Origin: Eledone cirrhosa
Taxonomy: Eukaryota
Direction: 5' to 3'
DNA length: 64,000 bases
Assembly: GCA_964016885.1 (NCBI GenBank)
Contig: OZ024741.1
Span: 354,826,001 to 354,890,000, forward strand
Shown here piece after piece: positions 14,603 to 62,468 of this stretch; the first letter of the stretch is position 1; the number at the start of each line of letters is the position of its first letter. The position numbers were made by a program, and so were the translations under genes. The notes beneath the pieces were generated by a model. The model searched no databases, had not been told where the DNA came from, and worked only from the letters and a program-made list of their open reading frames with translations.

Positions 14603-15835
14603 CATCATCATCATCATCATCATCACCGTTTTACGTCCGTTCTTCCACGCTAGCATGGGTTAGACGGGTTGTCCTGTTGTGGGCAGTGTCTGGTCGGCTG
14701 ACCATGCCTTGCTCATACAGGAACTGATTTGGCTTGATTTCTACAGCTGGATGCCCTTCCTAACACCAACCTCATTTACAGTGTGGGCTGGGTGCTTTTT
14801 TACCGTGGCACCTCCACGACCACCTTGCGGTGGGGGGTGTGGGGGCATATTGTCTATATGCTTCAGCTTGTACCCATGGGAGGTCGGGTACTCTGTATTA
14901 CTGCGTGACGCCAGAAGTCACGGTCGTATGTCATTGCCTTCGAGAGGTGTAATTGGGTAAGGTCGGCTTTTATCACCTCATCCCAGGTCATCTTGGGTCT
15001 CCCCACTCCGCGGTTTCCATCAACTTCTAGTGCTCTGCACCTTTTTATGCAGCTGTCATCCTTCATACGCATCACATGTCCATACCAGCGCAACCGCCTC
15101 TCCTGCACGCAGCATTTGATTTCTCTTATAATAATAATAATAATAATGAAATTATTATGCTCAGTCTCTCTCTCAATTCATTTATGCTTTGTCGTTCACG
15201 TATATTACTGTTACACATCCATCGGAGCATGCAGGCTTCGTTTCTCTCTAATCTACGTAAGTCTTCCACCTTCAGCGCCCAGGTCTCACTACCATGCAAC
15301 ATTGCTGTTCGGATACACGCATCATACAGTCTGCCTTTCATTCTGAGGGAGAAGCCTTTTGCAGCTAGCAGTGGTAGTGGTTCCCTAAACTTCTTCCATC
15401 CCGTTCTTACCCTAGTTATTGTACTTTCTGAACACCCACCTCCGCTGCTAATTCGGTCACCTAGGTAGCAGAAGCTGTCTACTGTTTCTACAGAGCCCTC
15501 CCAGAGATTGGTGGTACTTGTTTCCTGTGGCTGTTTGCTGCTTGCTGTCTCAGCACAGCTACTGCATGTGAAGCCTACATTCTTAATTAAGCTTCCTGAG
15601 ATCCCGCTACATCTCTTGTGTACCCATTGTTTGCATTTGGGGCAGAGAATGGAGTTCCTACCTACACCTTTCCTACATACTGAGCAAGGCCATTTCCCTG
15701 AGAGGATCTGGGTTCTGTTTTCTCGTCTACTTACAAGGACCTTAGTCTTTGTCATGTTGACTTTGAGACCCTTTCTTTCTAGTCCCTGCTTCCAAGTTTG
15801 GAATTTATTCTCTAGTTCTACCATAGATTCAGCTA
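14603..15835 (-). mobile_element. 5'-truncated RTE LINE inserted into a TTAA-type MITE
   Basis: ORF pieces (15126-15835, 14863-15108) are nearly identical to the C-terminal half of the 60.5-62.5 kb RTE (PHD-like finger, RTAMLHGSETW, RLRWYGHVMR) and there is an (ATG)n tail. The frame is broken by a (TAA)n insertion at about 15128-15156. The flanks rejoin as ttaaccctttcat.acca|tatttctaataaaatacac, a repeat also seen at about 3478 and 12265. Confidence 0.93.
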
Positions 15836-16419
15836 TATTTCTAATAAAATACACTACCTTTGGTTTTTCAAAAGCTCAAGAATTTTGGAGAGATTTAGTA
15901 ATATAACCAACATTCTTATTATTAAGCTGGAAATAACTTAATGAAGATTTTTACATAAAATTTTTGTGGAAGGTTTTTAGATAAACATAAACACTTTCAA
16001 ATAAACAGTATAGGTATCATAAATCCAAGGATAGTTATGGGCAGTTTGGTGTCAAAAAAATTAAATTTAAGTTTAACACCCCCACCCACTTACACACATG
16101 CACACAAACATGCCCCCACACGGAAGGTTTTTGAATATATATAAACATACACATGCATGTGCATGTGTACAGATACACGCAAATATGCTCACACACATCC
16201 ACACACAATTTACATATGTATATAGGGTTTTAAGTTATTTCATTCAAACTTGTTCTGAATCCAAAGAGTTGTTGTCAAACCTGCTTTTTTATTTTATTTG
16301 TTTGAAGGTTCTTTTTTTGTAGTTTTACAGTTGTTGACTCCCTAAATATTTGTGATGGAGAAAATAGCAAGGAATGTTTGTTTTATTCTGTCTATTTAAG
16401 AAGCTAACTTGTCTCTGCT

Positions 16420-41035: not shown

Positions 41036-42283
41036 GTGTCCCAAATGCAAAGTATGGGTGCATAAAAGATGTAGTGGGATCACAGGTAAGCTAACTAAGA
41101 ACATAGATTTTACATGTGGCCGGTGCTCTGGTGCAATAAGTAGCAGCAAGTGCTCACAAAATACTAGCTCTTTCAACTGCGCAGAGGGTTCTATAGAAAT
41201 AGTGGACAGCTTCCGTTACCTGGGTGACAAAAATCAGCAGTGGGGGAGGGTGCTCTGAAAGTACAGTAGCTAGAGTCAGAACTGGATGGAAAAAGTTCAG
41301 AGAGCTTATACCACTATTAGCCGCTAAAGGGTTCTCCCTAAAAATGAAAAGCAGGTTGTACGATGCCTGCATACGAACAGCAATGTTGCATGGCAGTGAG
41401 ACCTGGGCATTGTGTGCAGAGGATATACGCAGACTAGAGAGAAACGAAGCTTGCATGCTCCGCTGGATGTGTAAAAGTAATATACGTGAACGGCAAAGCA
41501 TAAGCGAACTAAGGAAAAAATTAGAAATAAGAGGGATCAGATGTTGTTTACTCGAGAGAAGACTACGTTGGTATGGTCACGTGATGCGCATGAAGGACGA
41601 TAGCTGTATAACAAAGTGCAGGGCAATAAAGATAGACGGTAGCCACGGAATAGGCAGACCCAGAAAAACCTGGGACGAGCTGATAAATTCCGACCTCACA
41701 CACTTACACCTCACCAAGACAATGTCACTGGACCGAGACCTTTGGCGGTACTCAGTAATAGAGAAGACCCGCCTTACCTGAATACAAAGTAAAACCTACT
41801 ACAGTCAGTAGGCATCTCTAACAAAATACACCCCCCGTCCCACCCACCCCCACCCCATCCACACCGCCCCTTTCAATGTAAAGTTATGTTGGTGCCACAA
41901 CATCCAGGCCGAAACAAATGAGATCGTGTAGTGTCACATAAAAAAAAACACACAGTTCACGCTGTAATGTGGCCGTGTAGGCAACACGGTAAAAACCTCC
42001 CAGCCCCACACTGTAAATGTGGTTGGTGTTAGGAAGGGCATCCAGCTGTAGAAAACCCGCCAGACAGTCCACGCTGTAATGTGGCCGTGTAGGCAACACG
42101 GTAAAAACCTCCCAGACCCACACTGTAAATGTGGTTGGTGTTAGGAAGGGCATCCAGCTGTAGAAAACCCGCCAGATAGTCCTATGCGAGCAAGATAATC
42201 ACTCTTGCCTCAAGTGGGAAAACCCCCGTCCAAACCCATGCAAGCGTGGAACACGGACGTTAAACGTTGATGATGATGATGAT
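41033..42283 (+). mobile_element. 5'-truncated RTE LINE of a second, diverged subfamily, inserted in the Helitron (TA)n(CA)n minisatellite
   Basis: [16 protein letters not shown], frameshift at ~41228, then RVRTGWKKFRELIPLL..HGSETW..RLRWYGHVMR, stop at 41781. The 3' UTR has a ~110-bp duplication and a (GAT)n tail. Confidence 0.92.
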
Positions 42284-47734: not shown

Positions 47735-48415
47735 GCAGTGGATTGGGAGAATCGGTAGAGCGTCCGAGAACATACCCTTTACATTCCAATTTCAAATCCC
47801 GCCGAGGTTAGCTTTGCTTTTCATCCTTACGGGGTCAATAAAATAAAGCACCAGTAATGCACTGGGGTCGATTTAATCGACATCCCCCCCCCCCTCAATA
47901 TTGCTGGCCTTGTGCCTAAATCAGAAATTATTATTATTAGTAATTAATCATTTTATTATCTATGTAAAAGCCACACTGTCCTTGTGGTGCTTCATTCAAT
48001 GTCCATGTAGATTGGCAGGGGCGTTAGAGTGACAGACAAAATCCTTTTTAGTTTTTGGTGCTCCTCTTTAGATTTCATCTTTCCGGGGTCGATAAAATAA
48101 AGTATCGGTCACGTACTGAGGTCGATATAATTGACTCTCCTCTCTCTCAAAACTACTGGCCTTGTGCCTAAAGTATAATTAATTATTATTATACTTTAAC
48201 ACAAAAGCAGTAGATTAAGAGAGTCATTAGAGTGTTGAACAAATGCCTAGCAGTATTTGTTCCAACTCTTTGCATTTTCAGTTCAAATTCTGCTATGGTC
48301 AACTTTGTCTTTCATACATTCATAGTCAATAAAATGAAGAACCAGTTAAGTATAGGATCAATTTAATTGACTTTCCTATCCCCCCAAATTGCAGGCCTTG
48401 TGCCTAAATAAAAAA
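47735..48415 (+). mobile_element. Three tandem Deu/Nin-type SINE copies
   Basis: Copies at about 47735-47930, 48008-48175 and 48210-48410, each ending ggccttgtgcctaaa...(att)n. Confidence 0.8.
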
Positions 48416-49429
48416 ACATTATTATACTCTATTATCCTATTGTTTTCAAATTTTTATTGAATAAGTATTTTCACTAATTATTTATTTCCTCTCATAAGAA
48501 TATTTAATAAAAAAAAAATTAAAACTTTTCTGCCCCTTTAAATTGAGACAGACAGACTGACAACGTGTGTGTGTGTCTGTGTGTTTATATGTTTGTCTGT
48601 GTGTTTATGTGTGTCTGTGTGTTTCATGAAATTCAACGTACAATAATTATATTTTTCTCCCCAAACTACTAAAACACACAACTATTTGTATATGCCCTAC
48701 AATTTATGTACATATGTTTATCGCATATCGAAGTTTTTTTTATATCTTGGTTGATATTTGATAACAAGTAAACTAATCACTACAACTGAATTGACCCCCC
48801 CCCCTCCCCTCACCAATTCAGAAATTCCCCCCCCCGATGTAATTTGCTACTCAGAGTTTCTTAGTGGGGATGCTCATATCAAGAAACTCTTAGTTGGAAA
48901 TGAACATTCAATTTATTTAACGCACACAACCACACTATTAATATTTATGCTAGAACATTGTTTATGTTTGAAGATTTATTATAAACTTAACTACACGTTT
49001 TTAATTAGAATCCTTAGCTGTGAAAACAATGAAATCTGAATTGTAAATACTTTTGATTATTCCTCTGTACACAGAAAAACAGAAGAGAGTATATTTATAT
49101 TTGTATTTCAGTGGTTATTGCACCTTCTATGGTGTATGAAGGTATATTACTATAGCAATGCTATATCCTAAACGGACGGTAGTCCGTTTAGTTAGTAATA
49201 TTGTTGTGGTCGTGTTTTCGTTGGCAATCGTCTGTTTACGACAGTACAGCGCAGCTCTACTTTATTTAACTGAGATAAAACTTATATGAGCATGAACAGT
49301 AGATCATTACGCATCTTTTGGTTTAAAAATCTAGAAATTTGGTCCAGCGGGAAAAAGTTTATAATCAAAGTTTGCTGATAAATCTTGTGTTCAAGTGAGT
49401 GAGTAGTAAGCGTGACGCTAGGGGAGGTA

Positions 49430-49627
49430 ATCCAGAAATGACGATGTTTGGAAAAGTTTAATTACTGCATGAAAGAAATGATTCAAAAATTGAACTTGCC
49501 CAATCTTCACAACATTGAAAATTGGTCAAAATTTGACAAATCTGACTTCAAACCAGATATGATTCATTTGAACAATGTTGGAAATCTTAAATTGACACAA
49601 ATTTTTGCCAATGTTTTTGCCACCTGA
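49430..49627 (+). pseudogene. SGNH/GDSL-hydrolase C-terminal fragment
   Basis: SRNDDV/(frameshift)LEKFNYCMKEMIQKLNLPNLHNIENWSKFDKSDFKPDMIHLNNVGNLKLTQIFANVFAT*. It carries the block-V DxxHLNxxG motif. AATAAA at 49665-49670. The N-terminal GDS block was not found. Confidence 0.6.
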
Positions 49628-49804
49628 TCCTTGTTCTATGGCTGACTGACTAATTTTGTGACTTAATAAAATGTCATCATACTAGTAATGCACAATGGTC
49701 ATTTTTAAATTTAAATTTTATTAAATAGTTGTTGCTTGCATTGCCTTCAAATAGTAACAAGAATATACACATACTTTTTAAAAATACATTATCAGTCAAA
49801 TCAG

Positions 49805-50164
49805 TCAAATGTCACTAAAAGCCAGGTGGTCGATAACAACTTCTATAAGATTAGTTACATGCTCACACATTGGATCACCTCTCATCAATGGCATTGGGTG
49901 TCTGAGATAATCGTGGAGATAACTGATGAAGTCACAAATGAAGTGATGGTCTTCCAGTGTGAACAACTCCCTATATCCATTGATATATGTGATGGCTTCC
50001 GATTCATAGGTGCATTTTATGAGGAATTCCATGCATCCGATTTTCAGTGATTCAATGGGCATTTTATCAGAGATGATAAGGTATTTGACCACGTTTTGCT
50101 TTGTAAGTAAATTGGAGAGAATCACTGCAGTCAAAGACATTTCTTTGCATGGGTTTTTGTCCAT
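49805..50164 (-). CDS. Intact 119-aa ORF resembling the SPOP C-terminal/BACK-like helical domain, without a BTB domain
   Basis: LSNLLTKQNVVKYLIISDKMPIESLKIGCMEFL...INGYRELF..HHFICD aligns by eye with SPOP [33 protein letters not shown]...SGWKSM..HPHLVAE. The ATG is in agaATGG context, a candidate 5'-UTR intron spans 50166-50208, and there is a minus-strand AATAAA at ~49717-49722. Confidence 0.6.
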   Translation of the reverse strand: MDKNPCKEMSLTAVILSNLLTKQNVVKYLIISDKMPIESLKIGCMEFLIKCTYESEAITYINGYRELFTLEDHHFICDFISYLHDYLRHPMPLMRGDPMCEHVTNLIEVVIDHLAFSDI

Positions 50165-50437
50165 TCTAAAAAGTTAAAATGATAAAGTATTACTACTATA
50201 TAACTTACATCTATTGTTGTAACACCATTGAAATGCACAAGTTTCACCAATTCACTATTATGCACTAATCATCTCAAATGCATTCATGATTTACTAGCTT
50301 TGTCATTAAGCCAGTTGCCTCAACTAGATTGCAATTATACTCAAAAGAACTTTAAAATGTCAATCACTTGTCAGTAATTCACTATGATCATTTAATTATT
50401 AGATAGTTGTTGCTTGCATTGCCTTAAAAAATAGTAG

Positions 50438-51531
50438 ACCAGATAGAAAAATGCGTACAGCAAAAAAAAGTAATATTGTTGGAATATAAACCTTTAAAAA
50501 TACAGGACAAGAAACTAAAATAAAACTTTAAAAGAATAGGACAAGAAACTAAGATAAAACTTTAAAAGAATAGGACAAGAAACTAAGATAAAACTTTAAA
50601 GAATTGGACAAGAAATAAAAAATTTTACAATAATATTAGTGGCAACATTTTTTTATTCGTTTCCTGTGCTATGCCCCAGTATCTTCTTGATTAGTGCATA
50701 ATAATTGTCATGCTCTCATTGTGCGTTGCCCCTGAGCGGTTGGTTCTGGTTGGGGTTGGTTGGCTGAGCAGTTCTGCTCCGTCAGAATGACCATTGCAAG
50801 AAGAATTGGCCGATGCAGTTGCAGGTCTCCTCCAAGAATGCACTTCTGGTCCCGCAACACCAGACGAAGATGGAGAAGACGACCGGGACAAGATGTCGAC
50901 TCTGACCACCGACTACGGCACCTCCCTCAATCACCGGTCCTCCCTCCCTCTGTCCCGTCATCCCTCCAGTCCTCCTGCTCCCCCTTCCTGTACCAGAAAG
51001 CTGTGGCACGCATTCATCTGGACTGCCGGACTTGAACTCAAGGACAAGATGCAAGGAGAAGATGGACGGGTTGGTCAAGATCAAGGATGAGCGGGACGAC
51101 AAGATCGTCCGCTGCTGCTCAACATCTGTGCTTATGGGCCCATGGGTCCATTCACATTATGCATGACACATGAGGTGTGTTGCCGAATGATGAAATAGGG
51201 GTATGGTTATGGCCCAATTGGTGTTCAAACCAGGATCAAATGATCCCCTGGTCTGACGACGACCTCTGAATGTGGAACCCAGAGCCTATGAATGTGGAAC
51301 TCAATTTTTTACCAATAAAAATGTTGCCACTAATATTATTGTAAAATTTTTTATTTCTTGTCCAATTCTTTAAAGTTTTATCTTAGTTTCTTGTCCTATT
51401 CTTTTAAAGTTTTATCTTAGTTTCTTGTCCTATTCTTTTAAAGTTTTATTTTAGTTTCTTGTCCTGTATTTTTAAAGGTTTACATTCCAACAATATTACT
51501 TTTTTTTGGTGTACGCATTTTTCTATCTGGT
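50438..51531. mobile_element. Foldback-like cassette: ~220-bp inverted repeats with internal 34-bp tandem subrepeats around a 656-bp GC-rich core
   Basis: 50438-50657 is the near-perfect reverse complement of 51314-51531. Subrepeat ggacaagaaactaagataaaactttaaaagaata. No TSD was recognised. Confidence 0.75.
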
Positions 51532-51619
51532 ATATATATATATCATAAAGAGTATAGAAAGTACCTTGAAAGATCAGTCTAATTTGCATGACATGTATAC
51601 ATTTGGCAATGTAACTTAA

Positions 51620-53613
51620 TCTCCTTATAATATATAACCAGCAATTTCTCTGTTTGTCTGTCTGTCCGACAGTGGAAACACGTGCGCGCGTTTTTTGCGC
51701 ACGCGTAGAGAGAGTGAGAGTGAAAGAAAGAGACAGACTACGAGAGGGGGATAGCGGGAGGGAGAGAGAGAGAGAGAGAGAGTGAATAGACGCTAAAACA
51801 CGTGCGCGCGTGTGAATGTTTTTTGCGCACGCGTAGAGAGAGAGTGAGAGTGAAAGAAAGAGACAGACTACAAGAGGGGGATAGCGGGAGGGAGAGAGGG
51901 GGAATTGAGGAGTGCTACAGAAACATATATACATTTCTGTGTGTGTGTAATATATATATATATACACACACAGAAATATATATATATATACACACAGAAA
52001 TATATATACATTTCTGTGTGTGTAATATATATATATATATATATACACACACAGAAATATATATATATATTTCCGTGTGTGTGTATATATATATATATAT
52101 TACACACACAGAAATATATATACATCCCTTAGCTACTGTTCTGTATCTGTTGCTATATCTCTCTCTCTTTCCAGCTATCCCTCTCTTTTAGTCTGTCTGT
52201 TTCTCTCACTCTCACTCTTTCTCTTTGTAACACTCTAACATTCCTCCCCTCTATCGCTGTGACGAATGGGGAGATGGAGGAGGAGGAGAGAGTCACTTCG
52301 TCACTTCACCTCTGCCTTTCTCTCCCCTCTCACTCCCTCATTATGTACAGACATTAGGGCGGTGGATTGGCAGAATCTGTAGAGAGTCGGACACCATGCT
52401 TCATAGCATGGAGTTACGTCCCTTTACGGTCTGAGTTCAAATACCGCCGAGGTTAACTTTGCCTTTCATCCTCATGGGGTCGATAAAATAAAGTACCAGT
52501 AATGTACTGGGTAATTGCCAGAGAATGTCTGTCTGTCTGTCCAATCACTAAAACTCAACCACCCAACCGATTGTTTTCAAGATGGTTGGATAACAGTCAT
52601 GAGCTTGGCTGGTCACGCTTTGGGATCCAGCTGGATCAGTTAGAGATGTTTGCTACTGATAGACTGGAAGGAGTGTTTGAGAAGGACTCTGCCCCCACAA
52701 CCCTCTCAGAAATAAGTGGGTGAAGAAGAAGATATTTTCAATTTACTTTTCAATTTGCATATATCTATATGCATATATATTTGCGTATAACACCAATATG
52801 CACACTACATATGCTAGCAGAAAACTGCACGAAGGGCGGTTTTTCTGCTAGTCTATATATATAAAACTGAGGATGTCTGTCTGTATGTGTGTGAGTTTGA
52901 ATCCCTAGAACTAGAGAAGCACCCAACCGACTGTTTTCAAACTTTACACATGTAATACTTATGTTTCAATGCCCTAGGGACCGCATTAAGCGATTTAGTG
53001 ATAATTCTTAGTCTTTCTCTTTTTAGATAGATACATACATATAACGTCGTGCCCTTATAATATGTCTGTATGTCTGGCTGTCTGCTGCCTCCGGTTATTC
53101 TGCCACCCGTGCTCAAGACAAATCTCACACTCATTCCCCAAACAGTTAGTAAGTGCACACAACTTCTTCCTCGTGTTATAAGCCACAGTGTTGCTTACTT
53201 ACGTACCACCAGACCCTTACTTCTTTGCCAGCCGTGGTTGTGGCAATACTAAGCTTAGCTAAGGCGGTTATATATTTCACAATACCTTATCCTGTGCAAC
53301 GCCGGGTACCACTGCTAGTCTCCTTATAATATATAACCAGCAATTTCTCTGTTTGTCTATCTGTCTGTCCGACAGTGGAAACACGAGAGAGTGAGAGTGA
53401 AAGAAAGAGACAGACTACGAGAGGGGGATAGCGAGAGGGAGAGAGAGAGAGAGTGAATAGACGCTAAAACACGTGCGCGCGTGCGAATGTTTTTTGCGCA
53501 CGCGTAGAGAGAGAGTGAAAGAAAGAGACAGACTACAAGAGGGGGATAGTGGGAGGGAGAGAGGGGGGAATTGAGGAGTGCTACAGAAACATATATACAT
53601 TTCTGTGTGTGTG

Positions 53614-53656
<43 letters not shown>

Positions 53657-54738
53657 AATATATATATATTTCTGTGTGTGTGTATATATATATGTATATA
53701 TATTTCTGTGTGTGTATATATATATATATATTACACACACATATATATATATATTACACACACAGAAATGTATATATATTTCTGTGTGTGTATATATATA
53801 TATATATATTACACACACAGAAATGTATATATATTTCTGTGTGTATATATATATATTTCTGTGTGTGTATATATATATATATATTACACACACACAGAAA
53901 TGTATATATGTTTCTGTAGCACTCCTCAATTCCCCCCTCTCTCCCTCCTGCTATCCCCCTCCTGTAGTCTGTCTCTTTCTTTCACTCTCTCTCTACGCGT
54001 GTGCAAAAAACATTCGCACGCGCGCACGTGTTTTAGCGTCTATTCACTCTCTCCCTCTCTCGCTCCCGCTATCCCCCTCTCGTCTATATATATAAAACAG
54101 AGGATGTCTGTCTGTTTGTGTGTGTGTGTGTGTGTGTCTATGAATTTGAATCCCGAAAACTCGAGAAGTACTCAACCGATTCTTTTTTTAATTTACATGT
54201 GTATTACTTATGTTTCAGGGAGTGTTATGCACATAAAATTCAACTTTTTGATCCCCCAGGGCCCGCATTAGGTCAAAAATTCCTTTTTTTTTCAGCTTTT
54301 TAGGGGTTTTTTGAGGCGTTATGTCAGACCGATGTCCTTGAAATTGTAACTATGTATTAGTCAGTTTCTTCTTCATACCGTGAGCAAAGAAAATCCAACT
54401 TTTTTATGGCCTAGGGCCTGCATTAGGTCAAAAACTTCATTTTTTCAGCTTTTTAGGGCTGTTTTGAGGCGTTAAGTCTAGTCGATTTTCCCGAAATTTC
54501 AAGGCATGTTATGCACATAAAAAAATTCATTTTCTTGATCCTCTAGGGCCCGCATTAGGTGAAAACCTTCATTTTTCCTGCTTCATCGAGGAAAATCTTA
54601 AAGATTATCCAGCCATCAGAGTATTCGGTTTATTTTCTTTACATATTGTCCAGGCATGCAGTTTTTCCACGATTAGGTCTGTTGGCGGCCCACATTCCAA
54701 AATACCTTATCCCGTGCAACGCCGGGTACTACTGCTAG
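51620..54738 (+). mobile_element. Composite, concatenated non-autonomous Helitron
   Basis: A|TCTCCTTATAAT...ccgtgcaacgccgggtactactgCTAG|T, with internal CTAG|TC junctions at 52848-52853 and 53315-53320. It shares blocks with 38463, 40235-43715 and 62547. Confidence 0.85.
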
Positions 54739-60215: not shown

Positions 60216-62468
60216 CATCATCATCATCATCATCATCACCGTTTTACGTCCGTTCTTCCACGCTAGCATGGGTTAGACGGGTTGTCCTGTTGTGGGCAGT
60301 GTCTGGTCGGCTGACCATGCCTTGCTCATACAGGAACTGATCTGGCTTGATTTCTACAGCTGGATGCCCTTCCTAACACCAACCTCATTTACAGTGAGTG
60401 CTGGGTGCTTTTTCGTGGCGCCTACACGTCCACTTTACAGTGTGGGCTGGGTGCTTTTTTGCCGTGGCACCTCCACGACCACCTTGCGGTGGGGGGAGTG
60501 GGGGCATATTGTTTATATGCTTCAGCATGTACCCATGGGAGGTCGGGTACCCTGTATTACTGCGTGACGCCAGAAGTCACGGTCGTGTGTCATTGACTTT
60601 GAGAGGTGTAGTTGGGTAAGGTCGGCTTTTATCACCTCATCCCAAGTCATCTTGGGTCTCCCCACTCCGCGGTTTCCATCAACTTCTAGTGCTCTGCACC
60701 TTTTTATGCAGCTGTCATCCTTCATACGCATCACATGTCCATACCAGCGTAACCGCCTCTCCTGCATGCAGCATTTGATTCCTCTTATGCTCAGTCTCTC
60801 TCTCAATTCCTTTATGCTTTGTCGTTCACGTATATTACTGTTACACATCCATCGGACCATGCAGGCTTCGTTTCTCTCTAATCTACGTAAGTCTTCCACC
60901 TTCAGCGCCCAGGTCTCACTACCATGCAACATCGCTGTTCGGATACACGCATCATACAGTCTGCCTTTCATTCTGAGGGAGAAGCCTTTTGCAGCTAGCA
61001 GTGGTAGTAGTTCCCTAAACTTCTTCCATCCCGTTCTTACCCTAGTTATTGTACTTTCTGAGCACCCACCTCCGTTGCTAATTCGGTCACCTAGGTAGCA
61101 GAAGCTGTCTACTGTTTCTACAGGGCCCTCCCAGAGATTGGTGGTACTTGTTTCCTGTGGCTGTTTGCTTGCTGTTTCAGCACAGCTGCTGCATGTGAAT
61201 CCTACATTCTTAATTAAGCTTCCTGAGATCCCGCTACATCTCTTGTGTACCCATTGTTTGCATTTGGGGCAGAGAATGGAGTTTCTACCTACACCTTTCC
61301 TACATACTGAGCAAGGCCATTTCCCTGAGGGGATCTGGGTTCTGTTTTCTCGTCTACTTACAAGGACCTTAGTCTTTGTCATGTTGACTTTGAGGCCCTT
61401 TCTCTCTAGTCCCTGCTTCCAGGTTTGGAATTTATTCTCTAGTTCTACCATAGATTCAGCTATGAGTGCGAGGTCATCAGCATACAGGAGTTCCCATGGG
61501 CATCCGGTCTTAAACTCCTCCGTTATTGCCTGCAGGACTATGATGAACAGGAGAGGGCTAAGAACAGAGCCCTGGTGGACCCCAACCTGTACGCTAAATT
61601 CCTCGCTATACTCATTGCCAATCCTAACTTTGCTGACTGCTCCCCTATACATGGCTTGTACCGCTTTCACAAGCCATTCATCTACTCCTAGTTTTCTAAG
61701 AGCCCACCAGATTACTGCACGTGGAACTCTGTCAAAGGCTTTCTCAAGGTCGACAAATGCCAAGTAGAGTGGCTTACTTTTAGCTAGGTACTTTTCCTGT
61801 AATTGCCTCACAAGGAAGAGGGCATCAGTGGTGCCTTTCCCTGGTACAAACCCAAATTGCATCTCGTCTATATTCACCCGGTCCCTAATCAGCTGTGCTA
61901 TAACTCTTTCTGTTACTTTCATGACCTGGTCCATCAACTTTATACCTCTATAGTTTCCTCTATCTAGTGCATCGCCTTTACCTTTGTAGCAGTTGACAAT
62001 GATGCTACTGCACCAATCTTTTGGTATGGCCCCCTCTAGTATTACCTGGTTAACGATACGTGTGGTTATAGTGTGACCTACAGACCCAGATGCCTTCAGC
62101 ATCTCGGCAGCTATACCCGATGGACCGGTTGCCTTCCCTATCTTCATATCTCTGATTGCCTTACTTACTACGCTGCCGCTGACTTGTACTGCTGGTCCCT
62201 CTATAGGGTCTACGTGGGGTAGGGTCTCTTCTTTCCATGCATTCTCCTCATTTAGTAATCTATCATAATGACTCTTCCATGCATCTTTCTTCTCAGCACT
62301 TGTGAGGGCAAGCTCACCTTTATCATTCCGGATACACTTCTCTCCAATGACATCACAACTATCTCTGACACACTGCCTCGCAATCTTGAATACCTCCTGT
62401 TTCTGGTCCTCACGTTGTAAAACATGCTTGAATTTTCTATCCTCTGCTTCCCTCCTAGCTAAGTATAC
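60216..62468 (-). mobile_element. Young 5'-truncated RTE LINE inserted in (TA)n
   Basis: (ATG)n tail at 60216-60237, a 3' UTR, then an uninterrupted ORF up to the truncation point beside a (TA)n run. Confidence 0.96.
60522..62468 (-). CDS. RTE reverse transcriptase ORF, 5'-truncated (APE endonuclease domain missing)
   Basis: The frame is open from 62468 (VYLARREAEDRKFK...) through NYRGIKL, QFGF, FVDLEKAFD, GVHQGSVLSPLLF and LLYADD, then a C4HC3 finger and RLRWYGHVMR, to the stop at 60522. Confidence 0.9.
   Translation of the reverse strand, partial: VYLARREAEDRKFKHVLQREDQKQEVFKIARQCVRDSCDVIGEKCIRNDKGELALTSAEKKDAWKSHYDRLLNEENAWKEETLPHVDPIEGPAVQVSGSVVSKAIRDMKIGKATGPSGIAAEMLKASGSVGHTITTRIVNQVILEGAIPKDWCSSIIVNCYKGKGDALDRGNYRGIKLMDQVMKVTERVIAQLIRDRVNIDEMQFGFVPGKGTTDALFLVRQLQEKYLAKSKPLYLAFVDLEKAFDRVPRAVIWWALRKLGVDEWLVKAVQAMYRGAVSKVRIGNEYSEEFSVQVGVHQGSVLSPLLFIIVLQAITEEFKTGCPWELLYADDLALIAESMVELENKFQTWKQGLERKGLKVNMTKTKVLVSRRENRTQIPSGKWPCSVCRKGVGRNSILCPKCKQWVHKRCSGISGSLIKNVGFTCSSCAETASKQPQETSTTNLWEGPVETVDSFCYLGDRISNGGGCSESTITRVRTGWKKFRELLPLLAAKGFSLRMKGRLYDACIRTAMLHGSETWALKVEDLRRLERNEACMVRWMCNSNIRERQSIKELRERLSIRGIKCCMQERRLRWYGHVMRMKDDSCIKRCRALEVDGNRGVGRPKMTWDEVIKADLTQLHLSKSMTHDRDFWRHAVIQGTRPPMGTC

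Follow-up and report, generated by a model that had tools for sequence, protein, structure and literature searches.

A probable non-autonomous Helitron with a long inverted repeat at its 3' end in the genome of Eledone cirrhosa

Results

A mobile element and its copies

The window analysed here is a stretch of 64,000 nucleotides from Eledone cirrhosa (GenBank assembly GCA_964016885.1, contig OZ024741.1, positions 354,826,001 to 354,890,000 of the forward strand), and its coordinates below count from its first letter. An earlier note, made from the letters alone, had singled out 49430..51531 as a compact, foreign-looking module of several genes. The unit is real, although its true bounds are 49166-51530, and the flagged 2.1 kb makes up the greater part of a single mobile element with the following features.

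49166..51530, + strand: the whole element, very probably a non-autonomous HLE2 Helitron copy, 2365 bp; bounds from many dispersed copies
49166..49191, + strand: 5' TC, then a hairpin with a 10-bp stem and a 4-nt loop
49194..49206, + strand: left 13-bp subterminal inverted repeat (asymmetric TIR)
49445..49446, no strand: internal deletion junction; lost with the deletion are the transposase and the greater part of the NADAR-SGNH gene
49446..49627, + strand: remnant of the putative NADAR-SGNH gene, the last 60 codons of its terminal exon, with the SGNH block containing D-x-x-H
49665 (+) and 49717 (-), span 49665..49722, no single strand: convergent AATAAA pair, 52 bp apart
49667..49756, + strand: degenerate (75%) direct copy of the sequence before the inner arm (50353-50436)
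49805..50173, - strand: orphan open frame of 122 codons (119 if counted from its first Met); weakly like the BTB C-terminal/BACK helical hairpin over about 50 residues (23-74)
50406..50438, + strand: sequence on the body side of the inner arm; conserved across families A, B and C
50439..50652, - strand: inner arm, an inverted copy of the 214-bp 3' terminus; holds a copy of the subterminal repeat at 50469-50481
50653..51316, no strand: loop, 664 bp, 52% GC
51317..51530, + strand: terminal arm, ending in CTGG (CTRR)
51488-51500, inverted: right 13-bp subterminal repeat, 30-43 nt before the 3' end

Two queries, 49100-50434 and the loop, were searched against the 3.0-Gb genome to which the window belongs; they gave 814 and 509 candidate copies, respectively, at 98-99% identity in the 40 copies scored per search, except for one 76-bp piece at 94%. 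In these copies, the parts of the module do move as one unit. Exact pattern searches located 311 left (5') ends (304 plus 7 with a flipped hairpin loop) and 845 arm tips in the genome, and we infer a copy number of roughly 450-550, allowing for about 1% divergence. The mean substitution distance to the window copy is 0.9% (55 copies). The deletion at 49445/49446 amounts to ~1.27 kb relative to a common 3.6-kb form and to about 10.3 kb relative to a 12.6-kb form described below; the ~1.27-kb deletion is common to many copies, and several other deletion classes are present.

Left ends start with TC in 67 of 70 cases and are preceded by A in 68 of 70, while every one of 64 right ends is followed by T (TATA in 38 of those). 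The window copy itself has A ahead, T behind and no target duplication. For 5 of 37 complete copies, the two flanks abut at A^T, with gap 0, in an empty paralogous site, and therefore insertion leaves no target duplication; one further copy sits in a TA run and is uninformative, and the others have no paralogous site among the examined loci. Two copies of different deletion classes (L078 and L092) occupy the identical A|T position in one host repeat, possibly an insertion hot spot. At another locus (L044), two short copies stand head-to-head with a TA run between them, and at L040 a copy is flanked by an inverted partial left end.

In the window, SINE-like repeated units and AG/AT-rich repeats flank the element in inverted arrangement (47775-48425, 52350-52520 and 51617-54100), and a survey of its open reading frames found no recognisable host exon. 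Frames at 60525-62468, 15129-15875 (minus) and 41203-41778 (plus), the longest of 648 codons, look like fragments of RTE-type LINE reverse transcriptases.

Architecture of the two ends

The 5' hairpin has a z score of -5.1, and none of 200 shuffles was as stable. Its small loop is inverted in 7 of the 311 exact matches, over at least three deletion classes that also occur unflipped. The right end is of a different kind. The earlier note had described a GC-rich, coding-like segment within inverted repeats: the GC-rich loop and the repeats stand, with a raw inverted match (50435-50652 / 51317-51534) of 218 nt and 99% complementarity, but none of the four loop frames matches Pfam. The arm repeat closes exactly at the 3' terminus. 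Contrary to the note's statement that no microsatellites interrupt the module, a minisatellite of 34 bp, with about 3.9 units, lies within the arms. The inner arm tip forms an A|C junction that resembles a normal insertion site and carries the 3' cleavage motif on the other strand. A strong short 3' hairpin was not seen (the region from the right repeat to the terminus was inspected by eye), nor was a palindrome of 16-20 nt some 11 nt upstream of the 3' end.

Remnants of cargo genes

The left part of the module had been read as the C terminus of an SGNH hydrolase. The full last exon of a longer copy upholds this, matching Pfam Lipase_GDSL_3 with E=0.0035, below the curated cut-off, and giving a first match of 0.95 in an Atlas search, with GDSL clusters among the matches; the window's remnant (61 aa), truncated by the deletion, has no Pfam match alone. 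A word-based protein search among longer proteins returned nothing for the SGNH exon, and a PDB sequence search nothing meaningful. In long copies, the cargo gene lies downstream of the transposase, is divided by GT-AG introns and has putative NADAR exons followed by SGNH. Successive exons carry the motifs GDS, PGA, GSND and DMIH in order, which we take to be the SGNH catalytic blocks; the window retains only the last of them. The S, G, N and H blocks of SGNH hydrolases are described in PMC4021074.

Two cargo exons match Pfam NADAR, at profile positions 4-67 and 118-162 with E values of 0.005 and 0.001, each below the cut-off, and TIGR02464 gave E 0.11, all in scans run exon by exon. Copies that bear this part number seven. 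One intron of the NADAR part holds a short, internally repeated insert that looks MITE-like by eye (L112:4026-4190). NADAR has been described in Gypsy and Tx1 retrotransposons (PMC12477816).

The convergent minus-strand frame of 119 amino acids is present as the earlier note had it, and so are the plus-strand AATAAA and its minus-strand partner some 50 bp away; the pair may serve as poly(A) signals. The proposed BACK identity of the frame fared less well. Pfam searches of seven window frames gave a chance SID match only and no BACK, the window's copy is absent from the 37 BACK matches in the genome, and no PF07707 match over about 100 residues was found for the frame. A custom profile built from 23 host BACK domains did score 14.7 bits over residues 26-74 (49 residues), with control maxima of 6.7 in shuffles (477 of 500 scored) and 9.1 in 2024 unrelated natural windows. 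The frame had 0 matches among 1.84 billion representatives, none in a word-based protein search among proteins of near length and nothing meaningful in a PDB sequence search; the Atlas gave values under 0.9, a low recognition, and a single-sequence structure model had a pLDDT of 41. The profile score hints, at most, at a diverged BTB-end/BACK helical hairpin, and the frame may be one exon of a spliced gene.

In short copies, rough counts of pN/pS gave 0.60 for the SGNH exon (28 of 32 copies) and 0.88 for the 122-codon frame (44 of 54 copies; 10 with indels dropped). Both pieces appear to be passengers there, close to neutral. The degenerate copy at 49667..49756 is likely a scar of stepwise cargo gain beside the arm.

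A full-length partner carries Rep-helicase domains

A rarer exon at 7 loci led to 12.6-kb copies with the two ends of the short form (L108/L107). Their frames match Helitron_like_N (E 7.7e-24), DUF6570 (1.9e-14), PIF1 (9.5e-26) and UCH (6e-07) in Pfam; for DUF6570, the corresponding values are 9.2e-18 and 1.6e-17 in two sister families, B and C, the family of the window copy being denoted A. An HUH motif was found in the Rep; RepHel (HUH Rep plus Pif1 helicase) is present in long copies with the same ends. The longer copies that the earlier note had proposed to look for exist, and they single out Helitron among its candidates. No AP endonuclease match was obtained in the transposase frames, whose C-terminal domain is UCH. 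The window copy is very probably an internally deleted, non-autonomous derivative of this 12.6-kb HLE2-group Helitron in the same genome, and it is a dead passenger.

About 22 family-A loci contain the Rep region. No whole transposase frame was found among family-A copies, the longest open frame around the Rep match being 1174 aa. Relatives with these domains occur widely: databases hold 552 related proteins, the best of them 32-42% identical and with the identical domain set. Among 80 metagenome loci, 9 match the Rep region and none matched the NADAR, SGNH or 122-aa queries; the cargo queries likewise had no match among the 120 transposase relatives listed. No long inverted repeat was seen in five related metagenome contigs, which may not reach the element ends.

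At two loci, a composite has two left ends and one right end, the inner left end being positioned at A|T within the transposase gene. This arrangement fits a start of copying at the left end and a stop at the first right end; it is also consistent with copying that begins at the right end and reads through the first hairpin. Among the examined loci, no junction of head-to-tail type was found. One family-A long copy has a family-B element nested in its NADAR gene region (L113:4176-8740).

Two sister families share the long terminal repeat

The Rep of family B is 90% identical to that of family A, and the Rep of family C 61-62%. Common to all three families are the 5' hairpin, the TC start, the CTRR end and the long terminal inverted repeat. 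Family-B elements are 11.2 kb long, with 190-bp arms and a CTAG end followed by T; their 5' hairpin carries a compensatory base-pair change and is followed by a 13-bp subterminal motif, and both the NADAR-SGNH gene and the 122-codon frame are absent. The family-B loop holds a 205-codon Cys/His-rich frame, open in 46 loop matches (L154:2471-3085), that has no Pfam match and whose Cys/His pattern recalls, we presume, a PHD finger. No donor of this loop was found, all 46 matches being family-B-like copies (91-100%).

Family C is represented by 21 full Rep matches, 7 of them with open RepHel-UCH frames of 2230-2245 aa. Its copies are about 99% identical to each other in DNA (L157-L166, L283-L299; for example, G000:C5:5366550-5379370), and the family has likely been active recently. 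They start with TC and a 19-bp 5' hairpin, and have 212-bp arms around an AT-rich 531-bp loop; CTAG followed by T stands at 15 of the 16 unflipped right ends read, and a 10-bp equivalent of the subterminal repeat was read by eye.

No similarity is detectable among the loops of the three families. The loop is inverted in 1 of 44 copies of family A, 1 of 15 of family B and 1 of 17 of family C, or 3 of 76 across the three. Within one copy, the arms differ at 2 of 214 positions (A), 3 of 188 (B) and 1 of 212 (C); between families, arm differences come to 16-18 of 179 for A versus B and to about 35% for A versus C. Changes specific to A or B stand in both arms. Together with the near-identity of arms within copies, this indicates that the arms evolve in concert. 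Moreover, A, B and C share a conserved sequence immediately inward of the inner arm, and the repeat is therefore ancestral to them.

Relation to described Helitrons

Judged by domain markers and motifs, the lineage would be an HLE2 Helitron with an unusual end structure. In the HELIANO classification (PMC11417382), HLE1 elements have TC, a 3' hairpin, CTRR and A|T insertion, and HLE2 elements short inverted repeats and T|T insertion; DUF6570 marks HLE2, and UCH is typical of HLE2 subgroups c/d. The transposase here contains DUF6570 and the ends bear short asymmetric inverted repeats (13 bp in family A, also in B), but insertion is at A|T instead of the usual, non-strict T|T. Canonical HLE1 Helitrons share the 5' TC, the 3' CTRR, the A|T site and the absence of target duplication; they differ in their strong short 3' hairpin, or palindrome, and in lacking DUF6570 and asymmetric inverted repeats. 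Helitron2 in the sense of Bao and Jurka (features in PMC3627910; variants also in PMC8788227 and PMC13085455) has short hairpins at both ends and, at the 3' end, an ATIR placed directly upstream of the hairpin; of the two hairpins the present element has the 5' one, with the 214-bp stem in place of the other. The AP endonuclease fused to RepHel in Helentrons was not found here. The DUF6570-Rep-Pif1-UCH set, with no endonuclease seen, is that of subgroups c/d, a likeness of domains; the HELIANO sections covered do not give the end structure of c/d. Readings of the locus as DIRS/Ngaro, Penelope or Tc1/mariner were dropped in view of RepHel and the A|T rule without target duplication.

The closest described forms appear to be HLE2-reverse (FoHeli3-5 of Fusarium oxysporum; PMC5148889, PMC11417382) and the proto-Helentron of Phytophthora infestans (PMC4067079, PMC11417382), both listed with a 5' stem-loop in HELIANO. 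FoHeli3-5 share with the present element a DUF6570 HLE2 transposase, a 5' hairpin without a short 3' hairpin, an asymmetric inverted repeat of 13-16 bp and, at 9-11 kb, a similar length. The present element differs in its TC...CTRR ends, its strict A|T target, the 190-214-bp inverted repeat at the 3' end, the UCH domain and its animal host. The proto-Helentron (5' TT, 3' CTAG, A|T target) has an HLE2-type RepHel without AP endonuclease, a CTAG/CTRR-type 3' end, no target duplication and extra cargo open reading frames, as here; in contrast, the present element starts with TC and carries the long terminal inverted repeat, and its short repeat directly adjoins the 5' hairpin instead of lying 3.6 kb from it. 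None of 404 other genomes yielded a proto-Helentron-like element in the HELIANO work, which lists a few HLE2 insertions in cephalopods (PMC11417382); eight recently active Helitron families have been reported in an octopus (PMC13282606).

Fish Helitrons, too, have been described with SGNH genes (PMC4021074; via PMC12273014): the texim genes, likened here by description, are intron-containing SGNH hydrolases beside Helitrons; the present SGNH domain differs in being fused behind NADAR, downstream of RepHel. The words NADAR and GDSL have 0 occurrences in the text of the HELIANO supplement (PMC11417382), and the available parts of PMC6431247 and PMC13282606 add no end structure. In the paper listings and passages covered, no Helitron is described as carrying NADAR or a terminal inverted repeat of 200 bp, and in the available parts of their descriptions long arms are given for neither of the two closest forms. 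As a whole, the element is thus not the undescribed system that the earlier note had suspected, but its long 3' inverted-repeat end and its NADAR-SGNH cargo seem to be undescribed as far as our searches reach. The supplementary figures of HELIANO, or the octopus repeat library behind PMC13282606, may hold these families already.

Discussion

A model for the long repeat

By analogy with other Helitrons, Rep would nick the 5' A|TC end, the helicase would peel off one strand and cleavage at the 3' CTRR|T would free this strand for insertion. Short copies are likely copied in trans, in rolling-circle transposition, by the Rep-helicase of a full-length relative. Because a strong short 3' hairpin is lacking, we propose a terminator role for the 214-bp repeat: folding back on the displaced strand, with its stem complete at the last base, it would likely act as the stop. 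That the long repeat stands in for the missing hairpin seems to us somewhat better than an even proposition. Strand switching or gene conversion in the fold-back would likely keep the arms identical, occasionally invert the loop and allow its replacement.

Alternative explanations

Several other accounts of the locus can be weighed against these observations. Seen in the window alone, the cassette resembles a 1.1-kb TIR element, and it could be a separate MITE or foldback element inserted at the end of some other repeat. However, 407 of the 845 arm tips lie in the inner, body-side context, and the cassette therefore does not spread alone; in all 44 copies with both arm tips the body is on one side, with no solo arm-loop-arm insertion among them, and each family has its own matching arms. 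A separate origin is accordingly very unlikely, and from these contexts the cassette reads as the right end of the Helitron and not as an independent element. The convergent genes with their close AATAAA signals had suggested an endogenised DNA virus or Polinton, of which this would be the accessory region, and three cargo exons match the phage family phrog_1017 colinearly. Yet the full-length copies are bounded Helitrons with RepHel whose ends follow Helitron rules, neither forming a TIR pair nor being flanked by a duplicated target; GT-AG introns interrupt the cargo gene, and the nine frames scanned in full-length copies gave no above-threshold match to a polymerase, capsid or integrase domain. 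We give a viral or Polinton origin hardly any credence.

Two further accounts accept the Helitron and concern its long repeat. The repeat could be accidental: the right end would long ago have inserted into the element itself in inverted orientation, and ordinary host recombination would have kept the two arms uniform although they are useless in transposition. The A|C junction at the inner tip would mimic a normal insertion site on this account, self-insertion occurs in family A and has also been described for FoHelis (PMC5148889), and loop flips are rare. It sits poorly with the similar repeat length and the body-side context kept in three families whose arms have diverged by ~10% and ~35% and whose loops are unrelated, and with the standard layout of 43 of the 44 family-A copies with a full loop, despite many different body deletions; we regard an accident as possible but doubtful. 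Alternatively, copying might pass through a parvovirus-like rolling hairpin, in which Rep nicks the inner arm tip and the terminal hairpin is transferred and recopied, giving flip and flop ends. Flipped loops do occur at both ends, in the small hairpins as in the long loops of A, B and C, and the inner tip repeats the 3' cleavage motif on the other strand. As an obligate step, this process predicts about half of the ends flipped, whereas 2-7% are observed. In a flipped family-C copy, moreover, a difference in A-run length between inner and outer arm is unswapped, which, for this one copy and one homopolymer, points to a crossover inside the arms. A rolling hairpin thus appears improbable, and we retain the fold-back terminator as the preferred reading.

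Implications

How copying by HLE2 elements starts and stops has so far, in the sources covered, been proposed from sequence rather than shown. The lineage described here combines an HLE2 enzyme with ends of HLE1 type, as those sources report for Phytophthora alone, and has in addition a long fold-back at its terminus that all three families conserve. With its seven near-identical open-frame copies, family C makes the role of the fold-back directly testable.

NADAR enzymes can remove ADP-ribose from DNA. A wider reading, which we offer tentatively and think rather unlikely as a whole, is that in the A/B/C lineage the 200-bp fold-back is part of the transposition machinery, at once a terminator that is re-homogenised and a swappable capture slot, and that NADAR-SGNH is a dedicated accessory, with NADAR perhaps reversing ADP-ribosylation of the single-stranded intermediate.

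Annotation tools that seek a 3' hairpin or a TT target are likely to miss or mislabel such elements, and fragments of their cargo look like orphan genes. If the fold-back is indeed both terminator and capture slot, it would provide a route to sequence capture distinct from end-bypass.
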